A DNA stretch of 64,000 nt from assembly GCA_048940925.1 (NCBI GenBank), contig JBHLOC010000008.1, forward strand, positions 32,001-96,000, in the 5' to 3' direction. Shown here one piece after another: positions 41,329 to 59,109 of this stretch (positions within the stretch are counted from its first letter, which is position 1; the number at the start of each line of letters is the position of its first letter). The position numbers were made by a program, and so were the translations under genes. A model generated the notes under the pieces. That model had not been told where the DNA came from and did not search any database. It worked only from the letters and a program-made list of their open reading frames with translations. This DNA is from Promethearchaeota archaeon. GTDB lineage: Archaea > Asgardarchaeota > Lokiarchaeia > Sigyniarchaeales > SOKP01.

Positions 41329-44148
41329 TCACGCAACTAAGCTCAGTTCAATTTTAAATGTAGCAATTACATGTGCTTGTAATGTTATTTCCAGTATATT
41401 TTTATCAAACCTATCAATATTTGCTTTAATTACTTGTTTTGGTATATCTTCCAACAAATTTACAATTTTAACATCGCTAATTGTGATCTTTTCATAAAAA
41501 GTTAAAATTGTCTTTTGAGGGATAGAGGAAATATTATAAACTCTGATAACCAAATAATCTCCCTCCTCTGCTTTTTTAAGAGCACTTAAAATTACGCTTT
41601 TATTATTTATCTCAAGAAAACTTAAAGCAAAAGGAAGATAAGGCTCAAATTGTTCTTTTTTGGATGTACGATAGTAAGATAAAGGTCCAGATGGTCTTAA
41701 TATAACTTTATCCGAGGCTCTAAAAGGGGTTTGAACCATTGCTGGAAAAATTGGCTTAAGTGGGCTATTAAATTCTTTTCCTCTCATATGTACTTCTGAA
41801 TCTAACCAGTTGGTTTTTTGGCTAGTTATAATTGACAATTCAAATATGTGTGTACCAAGGCATTGTGCACCAGGTGTGTTCAAACCTGGTCCTGCATGAG
41901 ACATTCTAGTAATAAAATCATCACGAGAAAGCCATTCAACACATCTTAAGAGTGTGATTGCAAATATTATAGTATTATCTTTATTAATTATCCCTTCATA
42001 TTCCGGTAAACCTTTGTTTAATACAGCAAAAGTTCTTGAATTATCATTAATACATACAAAATCCTTCTGATGGTTTGTAGGTAGCGGTTTTTGAACCCAC
42101 TTGTCTGCTTTTGGCATTTTAACCCTCCTAGGAACGACATAAAAGTGTCCATCAGCAAAGATTGTGTCTGATCTTATCTTAGTAGGAAACAAGACACGAA
42201 TTCGATGATCTTTGCTATTATTTTCTAATTCAATCTTAAAATCAATTCGTTTAATCCCTTTATATAATGAGATATATAACGTTATTTTATTATCAACTAA
42301 CCAGTCTTTTCTATTATATCTATCCTCTGTAAGCGAGTGTGGAAGCTTTAGGTTTAATCTTAATTTAAATGTCTTTTGAGATGGGCCATCTATATAAACT
42401 GATCTTTCGAATATAGCAGCATCTTCAGTTGTGAAAACCAGATCATTTTGATTCTCTCTTGGACCAGAAAAGTCATATTCATCACCCCAATCACCCACAT
42501 CCTCGAATTCACAAATATTTTCATAGCACACTCCTGTTGTTTTATCAGTAACTTTGATAAATCCATCTGATTTTATATCAATTCGATAAAACTCATTTTC
42601 TAAATATTCTCGTGTTATCTTAAAATTTATGTTTTCGACAGTATATAACGTTGCTGATTCCACTGGTATAACGTAATAAACTTTATAGCCACATGGAGGA
42701 ACTTCTGCTAAAAATGTTAACTTATGACTTATGCCAAACTTTCTGGTAAATCGAGGCTGTTCTTTAATAACACAAGTTTGATATTCAATTTCTTGTTCAT
42801 CAGAATCAATCACTTTGATATTAAATGGTAATTTTTCACCTTTAGTCTTACGTGAAATCATATTGAATTCTACAACATCTTTTCGTTTCCATGGGAGTGG
42901 ATTATAAACAATTAAAGAGTTTAAATCCTTGTATTTAATATTCCCATTAATAAAATTGGATAAATAGATAAAAGAGTTTTTAAAAATCTCACTTGCAATT
43001 TGCTCTGCCCAGTCAAATCTCGTGTTCATTTCATCATGAACTTCATCAATGCTACAACCACATATACTATCATGGGGGGCATTTTTCTGAAGCCATTTTA
43101 AGCCTGTTAGTATGTAATCCTTTGGGTAAATAAAGCTCCTATATTTATCTAGAACCCACGTAATTGTAGAAATCGGTTCTGAGTACTTTTCATAAAGATT
43201 TTCAATTACTGTATTTCTTTGCTTAATCCAAATTCGAGCGGACAATACTCCTGATAATAAATGACCATATCTTCCGCCTCTTAATTCTCCTTCAAATGAT
43301 TTTAAATTTGGATTTGATTCTAAAACTTTGCCTACATAATATTCAAAGTCCGCTTGTTCTATATATTTTTCAGGATATAAATTATTCCATTGTTTTATGA
43401 TTTCTGGTATTTCTGGTTGAGCTTCATCGTGATCTGAACCATTATTAAGGAGTACATGTGGAGTACTAGTATAATTTTCTAAATTTTTAACCATATATTT
43501 TATCCTTCTCAATGCAGGTTTATATTCTCCCTTGATTTTTTGTGTATTGAGCTTTTCTAATGACCCATAACCAAATATTAAATGAATTCCTAAAATAGAT
43601 GCGGCATTTCCAGGGGCTTTCCATAAATATTCCATATTCAAATTGTTTTCTTCAAATTCATTACCAAATCCTCTCTTAAATATTACAGAAGAGATTTCAA
43701 AACCACTTAAAACTTGAGGCAATTGTGCAATATGCCCAAATGGATCAGGTATATAACCTGCTTTCATTACACGTCCAAACTTTCTGCTAATTTGGTGTCC
43801 GATTATTAAATTTCTTATTAAAGATTCACTACTAACCAAAAATTCATCTGGCAACACATACATTGGACCTATAGAAAGCCTTCCTTCTTTTACATATTTT
43901 TTAATTTCCTCCTCTCTCTCAGGTCGAACTTCTAAATAATCCTCTATTGGAATGGTTTGCCCGTCGAACGTGAAATTTTTGTAATCAGGGTCATTTTTTA
44001 GAACATCCAACAATTTATCCATCATTATAACAAGTCTAGCACGAAACTCTTGAAAAGGGAGATACCAATCATGCTTTATACATCAATTGTATAAAGTTTC
44101 ACGGTCCCAATGAGTTTCTGGAACAATTATTATGTTATTCGCTTTCAA
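41329..44148 (-). CDS. GH38 alpha-mannosidase, split by a 30-nt BHB intron (exons 44148-44098 and 44067-41329; 929 aa spliced)
   Basis: TTG start gives MKANNIIIVPETHWDRE, which joins WYLPFQEFRARLV. Downstream motifs: DGQT, PDPFGH, NGSDH and HDSICGCS. Confidence 0.9.
44068..44097 (-). other. Putative BHB mRNA intron in the GH38 gene (30 nt)
   Basis: Minus strand CGTG-AA|A-CTTTATACA-ATTGA-TGTATAAAG-CATG-AT|T: 4-bp central helix, two 3-nt bulges and a perfect 9-bp inner stem. Contains an in-frame TGA. Confidence 0.88.
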
Positions 44149-50321: not shown

Positions 50322-53300
50322 ATGACAGTTAGAAAAAATAAATCAAAAAAAAGAATAAAATCTCTTGGAATTCTTTTTCTTACAATAATTTTACCAGCCA
50401 TTATTAGCACACCACTATTTTCAATTTTTAATGAACCAAACCAAACTATTGAACAAGACAATACTGAAAAGGATGAAAGTAGGGAACCACAATTCCCAAC
50501 CCCCTCAAGTAATCTTCCTAATGCCCATTATTTTAGTTATTATAAAACTATTACAATTGATCACACAAAAGTCAATGGTGATCATTCTAATTTTCCTGTG
50601 TTAATTTCTATAATCGACTCAGACTTGGACGATAAGGCTCAGTTTGATGGGGATGATATTGCTTTTGCAAATAGTACTGCATGGCTAGATCACGAAATAG
50701 AGCTATATGACCCAAGTTATAGTTTCGATGAAGCCCAACTTATTGCATGGGTCCAGATACCTTTTTTATATAATTCAACTGATACATTTATATTCATGTT
50801 TTATGGTAATTCCACTATAGGGCCCCAAGAACATGCAACAGGAGTTTGGGATTCCTATTATAAGGGTGTATGGCATTTAAAAGAAGATCCTGGAGGTCCA
50901 AATGATATTAAAGATTCAACTTCGAATGATAAACATGGAACTTCAAACTCAATGTGGATGTCTAATCAGGTGTCAGGAAAGATTGATGGTAGTTTAAATT
51001 TTGATGGAAACTATGATTATATAAGTGTGGGTGATGTTGGACCAGAAATAAAAACTATTGAATTTTGGATGAACCCCGATTCTCTCGCAAGTTATGGTGA
51101 TGTGGATAACTCAGGTCCTCACAGCCCAACTGCAACTGGAGAAACATATGATCAGTGGAACGCCCCAACTAATGCTTATGCTAGTGATGATTTATTTGCA
51201 AATGCATCAGGATATTATCCAGATCAAGATTATTACAACTTTTCTTTTAATATACCTGCTGATGCTCTTATTCAAGGTATTGAGGTATCTATTGAGGGAA
51301 TGTCTGGAACACAATATCAGACAGCTAGATGTAGAATAAGGCTTTCCGGAAATGGCGGGAGTACTTATACCGATTATTATGAGTTAAGTTGGTGGAGTAG
51401 TTATTATGACGATTATGATACAGCTGGAGGTTCCACAAATACATGGGGCAAACTTGGAGGATGGTCGCCATCTGAGTTTAATAATGCTAACTTCAGAGTT
51501 CGGCTTGAAGAATCAGGTCAGGCTATTTTACTTGTTGATCATCTCATTGTTACAGTATATTATAGGATACCTGGTGATATAGCAGTGATTGACCTAAATG
51601 GAAATGCTCAAATTTCAATTGATAAGGATGGTGGTGAAATAAAAGCTTTTGGTTTTCCGGGTACAACCAATATTTATATTAATGGAACAATGGAGACTAA
51701 AGTAGGTATAGGAACATGGTATCATGTAGTAATTATTAATACAATTGGAGTCCTTGGTTCGGATTTTGTTATTGCGGGAAATATTTCAGTGAACTTTGAT
51801 GGTCTTTTCGACGAGGTTCGTCTCTCCAATATAACTCGCTCACCAGAGTGGATTGCCACTGAATATAATAATCAGTACGATCCAGATAACTTTTACTTTA
51901 TTAGTGAAGAAAGAACTTCGGTGACTGATGTTCGAGTTAATGCTTTTGATCTATATGGTCATATCATTCCAAATGTAAATATTTCCCTAATTCAAAATAA
52001 TATAATAATTAGGAGTGCTATAGCAAATGCTAGTGGGGCTGTTATGTTTGAAGGTGTACTTTCAATAGATTATAAATATAATTTTAGCGTATCCATGACA
52101 TCAAATATCGCACCTTATCACACAATTATCATTAATAGAACATCTGAAGCAATCCTAATAGAAGGAGAATCTCAAACTATTAATTTAATATGCAATATAT
52201 CCAGAAATATCTTTAATGTGGTAGATACTGATGGAATTCCACTTGATTCTGGATGGATTATAGTTGGTAATTATTCAGATCCAATTCAGAATTGTACTAT
52301 TGACCAAAATGGACAAGCTACATTTAGGTGGTTAAATAATAGCGCTTATAATTATACAGTATGGTATCGTGATGTTGATTATAATCATGAAAATCAGCAT
52401 AAAATTGAAGTAGCAACAGGAGACATATTCAAAAGTCAATATGATTCAGAGATCAATATAACTACAATCTTAACAACAGTCAATTTTACACTTTTTACTA
52501 AGAATAATCCTCAACCCGTTGATGGCGCCAAATTAATATTGGGCAATGCTAACTTAGACAGAAGTATTGTAAATTTAACCACAGACATAGATGGAAAAGC
52601 AACGCTTAGGTGGGTAAATTCTTCTGGTATTAATTCAGATTATTCATTGCAAGTTAGTTTCTATGGAAAGCTATGGGACATTGAAATAGAAGATCTTATG
52701 ACAGGTGTGAAAAAACAAATCAATTTTACAGTGAAAGCTAAAGCAGCTTATAATGTGAGCATTATTCTTGAACCAACTGAGCTAGAAAAATTTGAAACAG
52801 ACCTAATATCATTAAATCCAATAAGCAATATTCAAGTAGAATGGGGTTCGAATGTAACATTCAGAGCATTATTCAATGTAACTAAAGTACCTTCAGGATA
52901 TGAAAATTTAACTGGACCAACCTATGCAGAACCGATGTCATATAAAATATTTGAAGATTCAACCCTCATTCTTTCTGGAATAATACCCACAGAAGATGAT
53001 TATATTGGGAGACATAAGAAAGAAATTAGAACAGATGAGTTAGAAACTGGGATAGTTTATATAATTATAATAACAGCTCAAAAACCTGGATATGTTTTGC
53101 CTTCAGAGGACATTATAATGTCATTGTACCTTTTAGAAAATGAACTAATATTAAACCAATCCGAAAATGATGATTCACCTCAATCAATACCTTGGCAGGA
53201 GTTTACCAACATGTCAGTAAAACCATATGGTATAATCTCTGAAGATTTCAGTATAGACTATAATATGTATAATTGTAATAATGGTACATTTCAATTTTCA

Positions 53301-56300
53301 ATCCCAAGTATCTCAAACGAGTGGGTTTTATCTCGGATTGTATTTAATGTTTATGATGTGACTTTTGGAGTGGGCCCTGGAGAAATAAATTTAAACATTA
53401 CTGATGATTTTGGTGTAAGACATGATTTTGATTCAAATTGGGATCATTATTATTATGACCCATTGGCTACTAATGGGAGTTGGAGCAATTTAGAAGTTAT
53501 TTTAAATAAAGGGGAAGTAACTGGCGGTGATACTTTTAATTTTACATTTGATGGAACTTTTGTAGGAGATATAGATATCATTGCTACATCTTATTTTATT
53601 CGGGATAAAATTAATGTTCAATATTCAAAATTCAATGTTACAGATTCCATACCTATTTTAACTGACCTTGAAGGATGGGCAATTCAAAACATAACATTTC
53701 TAATTTATGACTGCTATAATTTTTCTGCAGGAAGTAAAGCAAATTTAGCATCTCTGTCAAATCTCAATATAACTACCAATGAAGGTTATACGTATTCACT
53801 AGACTCTGGCGATATTTTTGGAAATGGAAACCTCACTATAGATGATAGAATAATCTATCCTTTAGATAATCAATTCTTATTTACAATAGAAGCTAATGGA
53901 AATCTAACATTTCATGTAATAATTAAAGTTGAATATATCCAAGAATTTTTACAAAATCAATATATTGAGAAAATTAATATATCAAAAACAGAACACGATT
54001 TTGGTAAAACAGATACTTTTCAAGTCAAGTTTATCGAGAAAAAATGGACTGAGGATTATGCAACCTTAGTATTTAGTGGGATATCCCCATTAGGTGGGCT
54101 CAGTTTACTTCCATCAGAAATAAATATGACTATTACAATAGAAGGTGAAACATATAATATTGAGGACTTAATGGTTGGACAAGGAATCTTTTCTTTGGAA
54201 GGGCTTGAAAAGGATAAAATATTAACAGCCATCATAGACACAAATTTAACGTCTTCTATTATTTTCAATTTGTCTTTCATGATTAAATATTCCAGAATTG
54301 TGACTTATGAAACTAAAGGACAAGTTAATTTTTCTATTATAGAGAAACCTGAAATATTTGGCGGAGTTCAATATAATGAGGATTTGGGATATTATTTACT
54401 GTTTATAAACACATCCTTACTAGATGCTAATGATTATACTATAAGGTTTACTATCACTAAAGAGAATTATAAATTATCAACAAAGGATCTGGAATTATTT
54501 GTATTAGAAAGATTTACTTTACTTAATGGCTCTGCTGACTTCTTTAGAACTTTTGAGCAAATGTATGTTATGGAACCAGTAAACTTCACATTCTACTATA
54601 TAGATGCTTTAACATATCAACCAATTACAGATTTAGACCAAAAAACTTATGTTTGGGAGTATTATGATGATGAGGGGAATGTGATAAAAACAGGACAAGG
54701 TACTCTTTTTACTCAAGGATATTACCATATACTAGACATAGATACGGAAAAATTCAAACTAGGTGAATATTTAATAGTTATTACTTTAAGTAAAGATAAC
54801 TACGAATACAAAACAGGAATAATTACATTAACCGTTTTAGAACGCCCAACCTTGATTAATGGTGAGTCTGTATTATCAGTTATTCAAGAGAATATTTATA
54901 TAGGTGATGCAATCAATTTTACATTTACTTACATAGATGAAATAACAAATATGAATATAAAAAATCTTGCTGTACAATCCTTTATATGGGAAGAATTTAA
55001 TGCCACAGGTGCTTTAATAAACAATGGTACAGGATCGTTGGTATCAAGCCTAAATGATCTATATGTTTTAGATTTTGATACCAAGACAAGAGATCCTAAC
55101 ACTTTCAAATTAGTTATCACATTAGATAAAGAAAATTATACTTTTCAATCAGCTACAATTTTATTAAATATCAACTTGAGAGAATTCAGTTATACTTTGG
55201 GTGATAATTTCAGGAATAACAAAATTAACATTGGTAAAGGAAAAAATGTTGTTATTGAAATTCATCTCATTGATTTAACTCGAAATAATTTTGATTTATT
55301 AGATGCCATAGTCCAGATATCAATTAAAGGCCATGTGTATACATTTCAACAAGTAGAAAATGGGATATATCGTTATGAATTAAGTACAAATAATATCGAT
55401 ACCTTCTTTGCTTCAAAGATACTTACTGGTGTTATAATGATCTCTAAAGAAAATTATGTATCAGAAGAATTTAGCATTACGATTGTTGTTGAAATGGAAG
55501 AGATCTTCTCAGGTATACCTATATTTTACTTTCTATTAGGATTAATTACTAGTATTAGTCTAGCTGGTAGTATTGTTGGATATAGAGTGTATAAAAATGT
55601 TACAACCCCTACATTTGTGAAAAGAGTACGAGCGATGAAAAAGGCAATTGAAGGAGAAAAAGAAATCTCTGAATCTCTATTATATCCCAGTAAGATTGAA
55701 TTTATTGGTCGACGAGTAAAAAGTAAATGGGATAAGCTTGGATTATCTTTAGCTGATATTCTTAGAATTAAAATTGAAAAAGAAACACTAAAAAGAAAAA
55801 TTAGTGAAGATGTTACACGACGTGAGTTTACGCCACTTGGATTATTATTAATGCAATGGGATGAAAAAATGGGTACTAAAGTTTTAGCTAAATACCCCGA
55901 AAATCTTGATGCATCTGAAAAAACCTTAATGCAAATATACGGTACACATGAATACAGTGGAGAAAAAGGAATAATAACTCTAACAGTAGGGATGACAAAT
56001 ATTATTTCATATTATACAGGACCTGAACAAGCATTTTATTTACTGTTATTCCTGAACTTGGATGATGACCCTGATGTTTATGAGGGCGGTATGGCAAATA
56101 TTATTTCAATAATCTTAGAAAATCTTAAAGATGATTCTTATTTACAAATGATCCCTTATCTCTTCCAACGCTTATCTATATATCCATCGCTTAGTGATGA
56201 AGAAATTCTAGCATTGAATTATCAAGATGAAATCAAACGATTGATTATAAACATGTTAAGAGATGATGGAGCAATCATCAAATCAGAATTATCTATATGG

Positions 56301-56924
56301 CTCAGAGAAAAAGCTTTAGAGGGATTTATTGATTTAGATGCTATTCTTCTAGAACTAGCTAAAAAAGATATTATAAAGCAAATTGCTATCAAGGGTATAC
56401 CTTCAGCATTAATTGTTCTTACTACTGATATTTTTATGCTGCGAGTTCCTCCTGTAAAATTATTAGAAGATCCAGTAAACCGTGGTTTACCATCACAATT
56501 TGCCAAAACATATCCTTCAGAAGTTAAGAAATTTTTCCAAGAATATCATCCTACTGAAGAAGATAACCTTAAAATCATAGAACTCTTCATTAATCCCCAA
56601 GTTTATGAAACACTACGTTTACTCAGAACCGCTATTGTTACAAGACAAGACCTCGAAAAGTTAAGTAAAAAAGGGGTGGAAGATATCTACGGTGTTTTAA
56701 AAATACTCTGGGATAATCACATGATTAAAGTATATCAAGATGAAAATGATATAGAATATTACGCGCTCCTTTCCGATTTCTATATGGATCTTTTATTCCC
56801 TAAATATATGTTGGAAACTATTAAAACATCTTATGAGCAAAAATCTAAAACTAATAAAGTACTTATTGAATACCTAAAGGCACTTGAGGATACATATTTT
56901 GAATTAAAGAAACAAGAAAAATAA
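50322..56924 (+). CDS. 2200-aa single-pass surface protein: signal anchor, DUF2341/LamG-like and Ig-like ectodomain, TM helix, cytoplasmic longin/uDENN-like domain
   Basis: N-terminal hydrophobic segment; YYKTITIDHTKV..NFPVLI, GVWHL and DEVRLSN..RSPEWIATEYNNQ; many NxS/T sequons; TM near 55512-55590; ~440-aa cytoplasmic tail. Confidence 0.8.
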   Translation: MTVRKNKSKKRIKSLGILFLTIILPAIISTPLFSIFNEPNQTIEQDNTEKDESREPQFPTPSSNLPNAHYFSYYKTITIDHTKVNGDHSNFPVLISIIDSDLDDKAQFDGDDIAFANSTAWLDHEIELYDPSYSFDEAQLIAWVQIPFLYNSTDTFIFMFYGNSTIGPQEHATGVWDSYYKGVWHLKEDPGGPNDIKDSTSNDKHGTSNSMWMSNQVSGKIDGSLNFDGNYDYISVGDVGPEIKTIEFWMNPDSLASYGDVDNSGPHSPTATGETYDQWNAPTNAYASDDLFANASGYYPDQDYYNFSFNIPADALIQGIEVSIEGMSGTQYQTARCRIRLSGNGGSTYTDYYELSWWSSYYDDYDTAGGSTNTWGKLGGWSPSEFNNANFRVRLEESGQAILLVDHLIVTVYYRIPGDIAVIDLNGNAQISIDKDGGEIKAFGFPGTTNIYINGTMETKVGIGTWYHVVIINTIGVLGSDFVIAGNISVNFDGLFDEVRLSNITRSPEWIATEYNNQYDPDNFYFISEERTSVTDVRVNAFDLYGHIIPNVNISLIQNNIIIRSAIANASGAVMFEGVLSIDYKYNFSVSMTSNIAPYHTIIINRTSEAILIEGESQTINLICNISRNIFNVVDTDGIPLDSGWIIVGNYSDPIQNCTIDQNGQATFRWLNNSAYNYTVWYRDVDYNHENQHKIEVATGDIFKSQYDSEINITTILTTVNFTLFTKNNPQPVDGAKLILGNANLDRSIVNLTTDIDGKATLRWVNSSGINSDYSLQVSFYGKLWDIEIEDLMTGVKKQINFTVKAKAAYNVSIILEPTELEKFETDLISLNPISNIQVEWGSNVTFRALFNVTKVPSGYENLTGPTYAEPMSYKIFEDSTLILSGIIPTEDDYIGRHKKEIRTDELETGIVYIIIITAQKPGYVLPSEDIIMSLYLLENELILNQSENDDSPQSIPWQEFTNMSVKPYGIISEDFSIDYNMYNCNNGTFQFSIPSISNEWVLSRIVFNVYDVTFGVGPGEINLNITDDFGVRHDFDSNWDHYYYDPLATNGSWSNLEVILNKGEVTGGDTFNFTFDGTFVGDIDIIATSYFIRDKINVQYSKFNVTDSIPILTDLEGWAIQNITFLIYDCYNFSAGSKANLASLSNLNITTNEGYTYSLDSGDIFGNGNLTIDDRIIYPLDNQFLFTIEANGNLTFHVIIKVEYIQEFLQNQYIEKINISKTEHDFGKTDTFQVKFIEKKWTEDYATLVFSGISPLGGLSLLPSEINMTITIEGETYNIEDLMVGQGIFSLEGLEKDKILTAIIDTNLTSSIIFNLSFMIKYSRIVTYETKGQVNFSIIEKPEIFGGVQYNEDLGYYLLFINTSLLDANDYTIRFTITKENYKLSTKDLELFVLERFTLLNGSADFFRTFEQMYVMEPVNFTFYYIDALTYQPITDLDQKTYVWEYYDDEGNVIKTGQGTLFTQGYYHILDIDTEKFKLGEYLIVITLSKDNYEYKTGIITLTVLERPTLINGESVLSVIQENIYIGDAINFTFTYIDEITNMNIKNLAVQSFIWEEFNATGALINNGTGSLVSSLNDLYVLDFDTKTRDPNTFKLVITLDKENYTFQSATILLNINLREFSYTLGDNFRNNKINIGKGKNVVIEIHLIDLTRNNFDLLDAIVQISIKGHVYTFQQVENGIYRYELSTNNIDTFFASKILTGVIMISKENYVSEEFSITIVVEMEEIFSGIPIFYFLLGLITSISLAGSIVGYRVYKNVTTPTFVKRVRAMKKAIEGEKEISESLLYPSKIEFIGRRVKSKWDKLGLSLADILRIKIEKETLKRKISEDVTRREFTPLGLLLMQWDEKMGTKVLAKYPENLDASEKTLMQIYGTHEYSGEKGIITLTVGMTNIISYYTGPEQAFYLLLFLNLDDDPDVYEGGMANIISIILENLKDDSYLQMIPYLFQRLSIYPSLSDEEILALNYQDEIKRLIINMLRDDGAIIKSELSIWLREKALEGFIDLDAILLELAKKDIIKQIAIKGIPSALIVLTTDIFMLRVPPVKLLEDPVNRGLPSQFAKTYPSEVKKFFQEYHPTEEDNLKIIELFINPQVYETLRLLRTAIVTRQDLEKLSKKGVEDIYGVLKILWDNHMIKVYQDENDIEYYALLSDFYMDLLFPKYMLETIKTSYEQKSKTNKVLIEYLKALEDTYFELKKQEK

Positions 56925-56986: not shown

Positions 56987-57066
56987 TAAATCCACACCCG
57001 AGCAGAGTTTTCATCAAATAACTTTCCATAAGAGGTTTTTTTATTTGATTCATTATGATGGATTTA
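56987..57066 (-). promoter_or_regulatory. Eukaryote-like SECIS element
   Basis: Minus strand: helix I TAAATCCA/TGGATTTA, core ATGA...GA, perfect 9-bp helix II ATCAAATAA/TTATTTGAT, apical AAAAA with a CC/GG mini-stem. Starts 5 nt after the TAG at 57072. Confidence 0.8.
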
Positions 57067-57071
57067 CTTTA

Positions 57072-58021
57072 CTAGCAACCATCCGATTGCTGGAGATTGA
57101 TTTTTATAAATGCTTCCTCTTGAAAGTTGCGTTGTTCTGATTTGACAGATCTATTTACTTGATGTAAATGTTTCATAGCGTCATTTTTTCCTTCTTTAAT
57201 GTTTTTAATTAGTTCTTCTTTACTAAATCCGCCAGAAATTACTAATGCTGTTTGAAAGGACTGTTCAGGTTCTAAAGTTTTAAATTCAATCTGTAATGCA
57301 GATAAAATTTCATCAGGGCCCTCATGCAAAGTATTAGAAAGATTCAATCTATTTTGATCGATTTTGAAATCTTTTGTTAAACATGACTCGTAATTTGTCG
57401 ATCTTGAAATGGGTGAAAACCCACCGTATAAACCAGTATCATCATATTGGTAAATTATATCATTTTCCTCATCGTAACCTGAAAGATCATTGTTATAACC
57501 TTCAAGTCCATTTATATCAAAATCAAACACAAAATACATTGAAAAGTCTTTCATGTTATAATCCGAGATATTTTTCATTGTAAAGAACGTGCTGATATAA
57601 GGAACCTGAGGTGGATTGAATATATCCTTATACACACGAATAAATTCCTTTTTTTTCAGATTAATAGCAGGTAACTTTTTTTCTCTAACCAATTTCTTTA
57701 GATATTCTGTAATGTTAAAATCTAAAGTAATTCTGCTTATAACAGTGCCTTTACGGGTGTTAACTAAATTATAAATTGGTGTTGGTTCAATATTTCTTAG
57801 AATCACCGGAATAGTTCCAATTTTTTTTCCTTCTAGCTTAAAGCTAAACCACGGACCAGTAAATTCCTGCTCACTAAGATATATAAGATATTTTCCCTTG
57901 TATGTTAGTTCTTTAATTGAAAACCCCATGACATATCCAGCAGCATTTCTTGTTTCAAATTTTAATTAAAATTGAAGATTCAAGTCGCCAGTACATCATG
58001 CCAGTGAACCTTAAGGACTAT
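57072..58021 (-). CDS. Putative novel selenoprotein, split by a 32-nt BHB intron (exons 58021-57979 and 57946-57072; 305 aa, Sec14)
   Basis: SD AGGAGGT then ATA start gives MVLKVHWHDVLAT-UGA, which joins NAAGYVMGFSIKE... and runs into the 285-aa ORF. 3' SECIS present; C-terminus SDGC. Confidence 0.7.
57947..57978 (-). other. Putative BHB mRNA intron adjacent to the Sec codon (32 nt)
   Basis: CTTG-AA|T-CTTCAATTTT-AATT-AAAATTTGAAA-CAAG-AA|A: perfect 4-bp central helix and two 3-nt bulges. Contains TAA in both the exon-1 and exon-2 frames. Confidence 0.75.
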
Positions 58022-58128
58022 TTTTTTTCTAACCTCCTATGAATTGTTTTAAATTTTTTATTTATATCAGATAATTTACCAATTATTAAAAAGAGATAGG
58101 ATTCATAAAAAAGTTTGTAATGAAAAGA

Positions 58129-59109
58129 TTAAAGAGTTTCTACAACTCTGTAAGCAATATATAAGAATGCATCATTAACATTTTCACCCGTTAAAGCTGA
58201 TGTAAAAATATAATGAAATCCCAATTTTTTAGCAATTTTTTTTATTTCTTCCTCAGTTATAACAATTTCTTCAATTAGATCAGATTTATTTCCAACAATT
58301 ACAATCGGAATATTATATAGGATCGATTTTTTAATTTCATTAAACCATTTTTCGATACTTTTTAAAGGATCGGGACGAGTTCTATCAACTACTATCATGG
58401 CAGCATTAGCACCATTATAAAAATTTGTTCTATTCAAATTTAAATGCTGTTGACCTCCTATATCCCATATAATAAAATTGATTTTGACATTTTCACTTAA
58501 ATTTACTGTTTTTTGGCTAATTTGGACACCTAATGTAGAGATGTAATCTTCTTCAAATCTATTTTCTACAAATCGTCTAACTAACGATGTTTTTCCAACC
58601 TTAAAATTGCCAGTTAGTATTAATTTATTCGAATATTCTCCCTCTAAATTTGGCAGTTGACCTACTCTGGTTTGTGATAATGCTTTTATTATTTCAGGGA
58701 TCTTTGGAGATACATCTTCATTTCCATCCAAAACTAGTTCAATTTTAGAAGCTACATGTTCCGAATATACTTTTAATTCAATATCTGTTGTAGATTGGTC
58801 AGTAACTGTAGTCAATATTGAGTTTGAGCCCTTAGAGCTAAACGCAAACTTCTTATCTCCTGTTGTTGTAATGTTGAAAAAGTGATCTGTTGTTCCAAAT
58901 TCAGCTTTGATTCTGTCAATGTAAGTATCAAGCATAGCAGATAATGCTCCAATTATAGCATCTGACTCTTCTTCATTTTCTAGTGTAGTTTCTGACGCTA
59001 TAATAAAACCATCTCTATCACATATTGCTACTCCTAAAATACCTTCTACTTCATTGAAGTAATATTTTATAATTTCTTTTAGTAGCTTAATATTTGGAAG
59101 CCTTTTCAT
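58129..59109 (-). CDS. Roadblock-Rab-like small GTPase fusion
   Basis: ICDRDGFIIAS roadblock; GNFKVGKTS, STLG, WDIGGQ, NKSD and TSAL. Confidence 0.9.
   Translation of the reverse strand: MKRLPNIKLLKEIIKYYFNEVEGILGVAICDRDGFIIASETTLENEEESDAIIGALSAMLDTYIDRIKAEFGTTDHFFNITTTGDKKFAFSSKGSNSILTTVTDQSTTDIELKVYSEHVASKIELVLDGNEDVSPKIPEIIKALSQTRVGQLPNLEGEYSNKLILTGNFKVGKTSLVRRFVENRFEEDYISTLGVQISQKTVNLSENVKINFIIWDIGGQQHLNLNRTNFYNGANAAMIVVDRTRPDPLKSIEKWFNEIKKSILYNIPIVIVGNKSDLIEEIVITEEEIKKIAKKLGFHYIFTSALTGENVNDAFLYIAYRVVETL

Follow-up and report, generated by a model that had tools for sequence, protein, structure and literature searches.

The selenoproteins described from Lokiarchaeia, which depend on a lokiSECIS, are SelD, FrhA/VhuU, HdrA, FrhD/VhuD and a Prx-like protein, and also AhpF N-terminal and DsbA-like proteins (PMC4989117, PMC11227280). 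A survey of Asgard archaea counts seven selenoprotein families (PMC11227280), and a 2026 review gives eleven for archaea as a whole (PMC13188914). The lokiSECIS is made of an AUGA, a 9-bp stem, a loop that opens with adenines and closes with a G, and a GA thereafter (PMC4989117); the type II loop and the SECIS features of Asgard elements have also been described (PMC11227280). As for introns, a review lists two archaeal mRNAs spliced by the tRNA-type route (PMC10485636). The cbf5 pre-mRNA of Desulfurococcales and Sulfolobales carries an intron that splits the catalytic Asp codon after its first base, and EndA cuts past the second residue of the bulge (PMC2738675); HVO_1309 of Haloferax is another archaeal mRNA intron suited to comparison (PMC10485636). 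Only tRNA genes are treated in a preprint on Asgard introns (10.64898/2026.10.13.758758). Our literature search, which did not cover most subscription papers, found no report of the family described below or of Asgard mRNA introns, and no published case combining a new selenoprotein family with an intron behind the Sec codon.

The gene studied here lies in the window, i.e., the whole stretch of 64,000 nucleotides that was analyzed, and belongs to a Lokiarchaeial genome (G000) of 4.8 Mb and 30% GC, the proteins of which have their closest matches in Promethearchaeota (Lokiarchaeia). Comparative sequence data give good support to a new selenoprotein family in which a minority of alleles has a cbf5-like mRNA intron immediately past the Sec codon. 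We estimate at roughly 0.88 the probability that the product of this locus is a 305-aa selenoprotein from an Asgard family not yet described, and that it would be expressed through BHB splicing, an AUA start and UGA recoding, in the absence of any RNA or protein data.

Gene Organization

An initial sequence-only reading had proposed, for this locus, a Shine-Dalgarno (SD) sequence, a short ATA-initiated frame ending in TGA, a 32-nt insert, a 285-aa ORF and a SECIS-like hairpin, and each of these elements was recovered on the minus strand (Table 1). Excision of the insert in silico leads to DVLAT-U-NAAGYVMG and a protein of 305 aa. If the insert is retained, the frame meets a stop six codons past the UGA, and the unspliced mRNA would yield a short peptide only. 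Database entries for the protein start at Met21.

Table 1. Coordinates of the selenoprotein gene and its elements in the window.
Feature	Position	Strand	Remarks
SD AGGAGGT	58038-58032	-	10 nt 5' of ATA
ATA start codon	58021-58019	-	Exon 1 codon 1
Exon 1	57979..58021	-	ATA + 13 codons including the Sec codon, + first base of codon 15
In-frame UGA/TGA, codon 14 (Sec)	57982-57980	-	TGA in 104/104 copies
BHB type intron, 32 nt (predicted)	57978-57947	-	Frame-breaking; absent from 97 relatives
Central helix, exon strand CUUG	57981..57984	-	Followed by bulge AA^U with 5' cut
Central helix, intron strand CAAG	57949..57952	-	Followed by bulge with 3' cut; CAAG in 7/7 introns
Exon-exon helix closing the splice motif, 5' arm	57986..58000	-	
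Exon-exon helix, 3' arm	57927..57942	-	Overlaps called ATG (Met21)
Exon 2	57946..57072	-	Contains the called 285-aa ORF, the beta-supersandwich body and Cys305
Called ATG (Met21)	57929	-	Exon 2 in frame with ATG
C-terminal Cys305 codon	57077-57075	-	
Stop TAG	57074-57072	-	
Loki-type (eukaryote-like) SECIS, type II with apical mini-stem	56987..57066	-	Core 57053-57011
SECIS lower helix	57066-57059 / 56994-56987	-	
Roadblock-Rab-like GTPase gene, directly upstream	58129..59109	-	
Predicted spliced junction sequence of the selenoprotein mRNA			GCGACTTGAAATGCTGCT

Comparison was made with 106 distinct coding sequences of the same Lokiarchaeial family, 104 of which had enough upstream DNA. In 97 of these 104 copies, the SD, an ATA start, 12 codons, the TGA and six further codons run into the called ORF without any insert, the distance from TGA to the called ATG being seven codons; the junction that had been predicted from the window alone is thus exact, and the joined form is the genomic form in these relatives. 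Exon 1 varies mostly at third codon positions (entropy 0.89/0.39/1.46 by codon position). Codon 1 is ATA in 86/104 copies, ATG once and TTG once, and it aligns with Met1 of the Cys homologues. Since the Ile codons at position 10 are mixed (ATT 24, ATA 19) and codon 1 is not, the ATA triplet itself is kept. The SD-like GAGG is found 5' of codon 1 in 100/104 relatives, against 7/104 for the called ATG. AUA initiation would nevertheless be inferred from conservation only. Across this genome, 9 of 109 GGAGGT sites at the 5' ends of long frames are followed by ATA, with no ATG, GTG or TTG in range, and AUA starts may not be unique to the selenoprotein gene.

Sec and Cys Homologues

Of 301 genomes of the phylum, 148 gave a match in an alignment search; some of these matches were weak and corresponded to a like domain in larger proteins. 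The motif of the wider family is CxxU or CxxC, the first Cys of which was lost in the subfamily of the window gene. CxxU occurs in genus g19 and in families f3, f4, f12 and f21, and CxxC in family f2, with its second Cys at residue 14 from Met1; f2 includes Promethearchaeum syntrophicum MK-D1 (DSAG12_02345) and Ca. Lokiarchaeum ossiferum (NEF87_004727). Counted by group, CxxU is present in four others beyond this subfamily, and CxxC in two. By inference, f12 represents Thorarchaeia, on a basis that includes the GUAAA loop described in PMC11227280. Across these lineages, position 14 is Sec (44) or Cys (12) in 56/56 aligned sequences. According to the sequence-only reading, its own proposal would have fallen if homologs started at Met21 with no conserved upstream exon and no Cys or Sec at that position, or if the genome lacked the Sec machinery. 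Neither holds: exon 1 shows the conservation of a coding sequence, residue 14 is matched by Sec or Cys in the homologues, and the machinery is encoded.

A Cys is found among the last residues of 106/106 sequences of the family. Cys11 is kept in f12 and f21, the terminal Cys in the subfamily of the window gene, and both in f2, f4 and g19, which suggests that either of the two could partner residue 14. The gene is single-copy and present in 63/68 family genomes; in f21 it lies about 0.6 kb from secS. Loss of the Sec machinery was considered as the cause of Cys in f2 and ruled out, as SecS and tRNA-Sec are retained in the five Cys-type genomes tested. The f12 genomes also show a weaker second match (E about 1e-11; e.g., G265:C213:3237-3686) inside frames of 1,000-1,500 aa, where the same supersandwich core forms a domain of large proteins.

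In the genome of the window, the tRNA-Sec, SecS and an EFSec-like gene (240 bits for a family cut-off of 242) lie together on one contig. A PSTK-like gene scoring under its family cut-off, two EndA paralogues and one RtcB are encoded as well, together with two TGA-containing selD genes, which are neighboring paralogues at G000:C72:3553-6078.

SECIS Element

The SECIS core shows an AUGA, a stem with 9/9 pairs, a loop of 19 nt opening with AAAAA and closing with AG, and then GA. Its fold is more stable than that of dinucleotide shuffles (z = -3.45), and the pattern lies 3' of the stop in 104/106 family sequences. In the two exceptions (L030, L031), just past the stop codon, AGGA replaces AUGA, and the UGA is retained. 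A strict scan of the whole genome returned 9 matches, vs. 1 in the reversed genome, the other 8 all being located 3' of TGA-containing frames; an Rfam search of the window gave no match. In f12 and f21, the strict pattern was detected in 15/21 Sec-type loci and in 0/9 Cys-type loci; the stems there diverge widely in sequence, retain their pairing and often overlap the stop codon. No such pattern was detected for the three CxxU genes of f4, nor for five f12 genes that are intact.

Three further genes of this genome have a SECIS downstream of a TGA. A gene with tandem TGA TGA codons (L227, G000:C7 about 42950-43500, minus strand; HAD-U-U-ADV), kept in 14/14 loci examined and followed by a SECIS 131 nt farther downstream in at least 10 loci, is another unlisted selenoprotein. 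Two genes (G000:C41:222970-223263, minus strand; G000:C63:88277-88590, plus strand) encode small single-helix membrane proteins with a TGA soon past the helix, followed downstream by a SECIS. The TGA of the C41 gene is retained in its relatives, whose sequence beyond it is variable.

At sequence level, it can be established that the upstream exon is coding and conserved, that its invariant UGA exchanges with Cys codons, that a SECIS accompanies this UGA, and that taking out the insert recovers the sequence of the family. The selenoprotein interpretation passes all the tests that sequence allows and is nearly certain, and the gene product is very probably a selenium-containing protein, from a family not described before and present in several Asgard lineages. 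Against it, the UGA may be imagined as the true stop of a conserved leader peptide or as a codon read as Cys or Trp, for which nothing specific speaks beyond the use of TGA as stop codon in 12/106 genes of the family, and which we regard as barely tenable, given that codon 14 is never TAA or TAG (0/104), that coding conservation continues through the UGA, that the UGA aligns with the second Cys of CxxC, and that the SECIS is lost where Cys replaces Sec.

Structure and Probable Splicing of the Intron

The insert occupies one identical site in seven copies, which represent six distinct intron sequences of 28, 29, 31, 31, 31, 32, and 32 nt, none of them a multiple of three. An assembly artefact was ruled out, the seven copies coming from separate assemblies. 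All introns begin with TCTTC and end with GAA(G/A)CAAGA(A/T), and their middles are variable and self-pairing. Removal restores the sequence of relatives exactly. The four-pair central helix between exonic CUUG and intronic CAAG can form in 7/7 alleles, and in all seven the boundaries that restore the family sequence fall past the second residue of each bulge. The intron helix is perfect at the bulge in 6/7 alleles and the exon helix is imperfect beside the bulge, which corresponds to a relaxed motif. The sequence ACT TGA AA surrounds the Sec codon in all intron alleles, vs. 44/97 intron-less ones.

It had been suggested that the Sec codon forms the splice site. In the motif, U and G belong to the central helix and A to the bulge; the UGA is wholly contained in exon 1 and is neither created nor split by splicing, the 5' cut being placed one base past it, behind the first base of codon 15.

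The splice region folds better than dinucleotide shuffles (z = -3.17), and the joined exons of intron alleles reach -13.6 kcal/mol vs. -7.2 for matched intron-less alleles, a difference to be taken as indicative only since the alleles are related and the P value is overstated. In this allele, the intron helix opens with a C.A pair where the other six have C-G, the central helix has an ensemble probability of about 0.25, with an energy 0.6 kcal/mol higher than that of the minimum-energy fold, and the BHB fold is the weakest among the seven. Taken alone, its exon helix does not differ significantly from synonymously recoded sequences (9% of 1000).

At least two other protein genes of the same genome carry comparable inserts. 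The EF-2 gene (G000:C32, minus strand) contains a canonical 30-nt BHB intron from 27924 with an in-frame TAA, removal of which restores the conserved motif 5' of ERGITI, and EF-2 is inferred to need the same kind of splicing as the selenoprotein gene. The RNase HII gene (L257, G000:C40:190286-190915, minus strand) has a 30-nt insert with an in-frame TAA inside its DEAGRG motif, in a relaxed BHB; its removal cleanly restores the motif. A genome-wide BHB scan returned 251 candidates vs. 100 in the control, and only the top match (EF-2) was clearly separate.

We consider it highly likely that the insert of this allele is spliced, even without RNA data. The pre-mRNA would fold into a relaxed BHB, an (alpha-beta)2-type EndA would cut past the second base of each bulge, and RtcB would ligate the exons. 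Ribosomes would then initiate at the AUA downstream of the strong SD, and UGA14 would be read as Sec by EFSec and tRNA-Sec, directed by the 3' SECIS. The intron may persist at a place where one strand of the central helix is locked by the invariant Sec codon, a situation comparable to that of the cbf5 intron at a catalytic codon.

Distribution and Possible Roles of the Intron

The idea that the Sec codon and the splice site are coupled throughout the family could not be upheld, as the intron exists in only 7/104 copies, all within one genus (5/135 family genomes). Its presence needs five changes on the gene tree, and an AU test rejects a single clade of intron carriers (p = 2e-49), so that one origin followed by purely vertical inheritance is ruled out. 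When mapped on the tree of the remaining gene sequence, the two exon-1 types call for four changes, and an intron-less sister of this allele carries the other exon-1 type; the 5' end of the gene thus looks mosaic. Since the intron ends are shared, we argue for one putative origin, then repeated loss or spread by recombination. A mobile repeat was rejected, the signature being found once per genome, always at this gene, and once in a metagenome scan. Crude ARAGORN calls of tRNA introns in this genome gave no match to the selenoprotein intron.

Could the intron be a regulatory device? Splicing might gate selenoprotein output, or ribosomes pausing at the UGA under low selenium might alter fold and splicing. 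The UGA is indeed part of the central helix and bulge, the splice motif would be unwound by a ribosome that had advanced 14 codons, and the weak AUA start is retained in most copies. This remains unlikely in our opinion, as the intron is missing from 93% of copies, its five changes on the tree do not fit such a role, and like introns occur in genes unrelated to selenium. Its optional, patchy presence indicates rather that the intron is probably a passenger at a conserved site and not a conserved switch.

Less room is left for a second possibility, in which the family is a selenoprotein family and the insert here stays unspliced, either as an inactivating insertion or with a Sec-free product from Met21. 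The database calls at Met21 and the C.A mismatch in the intron helix of this allele would agree with it. On the other hand, exon 1, SD and SECIS are intact in 7/7 insert alleles, from four places in the tree, of a gene that is single-copy and widely kept in the family; Met21 has no SD, its AUG is buried in the exon helix, and a start there would delete strand 1 of the fold; and EF-2 of the same genome requires such splicing. That the insert is skipped by the ribosome (bypass or frameshift), as its end AGAA, which resembles the TGAA 5' of it and might allow tRNA re-pairing, could suggest, is hardly credible when one allele ends in AGAT, lengths of 28-32 nt differ in frame, boundaries match EndA cut positions in 7/7 alleles and no matched take-off and landing codons exist.

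Fold, Neighborhood and Likely Function

The claim that the protein resembles no known archaeal selenoprotein stands within the lists consulted. Neither Pfam nor NCBIfam matched the window ORF or full-length Cys homologues, a sequence search of solved structures gave nothing significant, and the predicted fold of the Cys homologue is a different one. Also, the 87 supplementary files of PMC11227280 contain none of its motifs. As far as the available parts of the sources allow, the family falls outside the listed archaeal ones (SelD, Frh/Vhu, HdrA, Prx-like, AhpF-N, DsbA-like, methanogen families).

The AlphaFold model of the MK-D1 Cys homologue (pLDDT 90.6; 53 for the last residues), which is 28% identical to the window protein, is a stand-alone beta-supersandwich. 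Its best structural match is a GH94-type supersandwich (Z 21.3, rmsd 2.7, 233 residues, 10% identity). The CxxC is placed in a hairpin turn, where strand 1 ends. Besides residue 14, the conserved columns are N140, D156, F157, D158, G161, D168, D183 and several Gly, with no His, and mutarotase chemistry is unlikely because no His is conserved. We lean slightly toward a selenol-thiol redox site, an inferred function in which the resolving residue for Sec14, on the N-terminal hairpin, would be Cys11 in CxxU lineages or the C-terminal Cys in the lineage of the window gene, and the target would be a ligand or partner bound close to the cluster of conserved acidic residues. A metal site, likewise inferred, is the main alternative and seems distinctly less probable.

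A Roadblock-Rab-like GTPase gene is the upstream neighbor at 64/67 loci of the family, and also among Cys-type members. It directly precedes the gene in two Lokiarchaeial families, with a gap of 21 nt in MK-D1, and is absent from this position in f4, f12 and f21. A functional link is possible and has not been shown. A bolder scheme, with the Sec codon as a working part of the splice motif that couples translation as far as the UGA, selenium supply and tRNA-type splicing, and the product as a redox regulator of the adjacent GTPase, is improbable. On the other side, the plus-strand gene at 50322-56924 of the window is convergent with the selenoprotein gene and encodes a 2200-aa protein with weak lectin-like and carboxypeptidase-regulatory matches and a probable membrane helix; a like neighbor is present in 18 family loci.

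Significance and Comparison With Known Systems

The present data would add a widespread family to the seven Asgard and eleven archaeal selenoprotein families, with a beta-supersandwich fold not met in the selenoprotein lists searched, as far as these could be consulted. When searches are led by homology, the selenoproteome of the archaea closest to eukaryotes is undercounted, and two more unlisted SECIS-bearing genes were seen in the same genome. The locus also provides a natural case of putative tRNA-type splicing within a coding sequence, with intron-bearing and intron-less alleles in one genus, and a single message that would need three unusual steps, namely an AUA start, EndA splicing and UGA recoding. 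As Cys orthologues exist in the cultured MK-D1 and in Ca. Lokiarchaeum ossiferum, the function of the protein can be tested now.

With the known Lokiarchaeial selenoproteins, the protein shares an in-frame UGA, a 3' SECIS, Cys homologues and, in the wider family, CxxU/CxxC; it differs by the lack of any sequence match, the beta-supersandwich, the AUA start, the longer SECIS loop and, in some alleles, the intron. Its SECIS fits the features of the lokiSECIS (PMC4989117), with a longer, type II loop (PMC11227280). The fold is shared with the beta-supersandwich N-terminal domains of GH94, GH15 and GH116 (Z 17-21) and with galactose mutarotase-like proteins (Z 12-13.5). Identity to all of these is only 5-14%, and the family protein, in contrast to them, stands alone, without the (alpha/alpha)6 barrel or a conserved His, and carries a Sec/Cys motif. 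Finally, the intron differs from those of cbf5 and HVO_1309 by its Asgard host, its position adjoining the Sec codon and not inside an Asp codon, its polymorphism within a genus and a splicing not yet supported by experiment. It resembles them in being short, located in a coding region and framed by a relaxed BHB with cuts between the second and third bulge residues, and also in its phase-1 insertion at a catalytic site, the two-subunit EndA encoded in the genome and its patchy presence.
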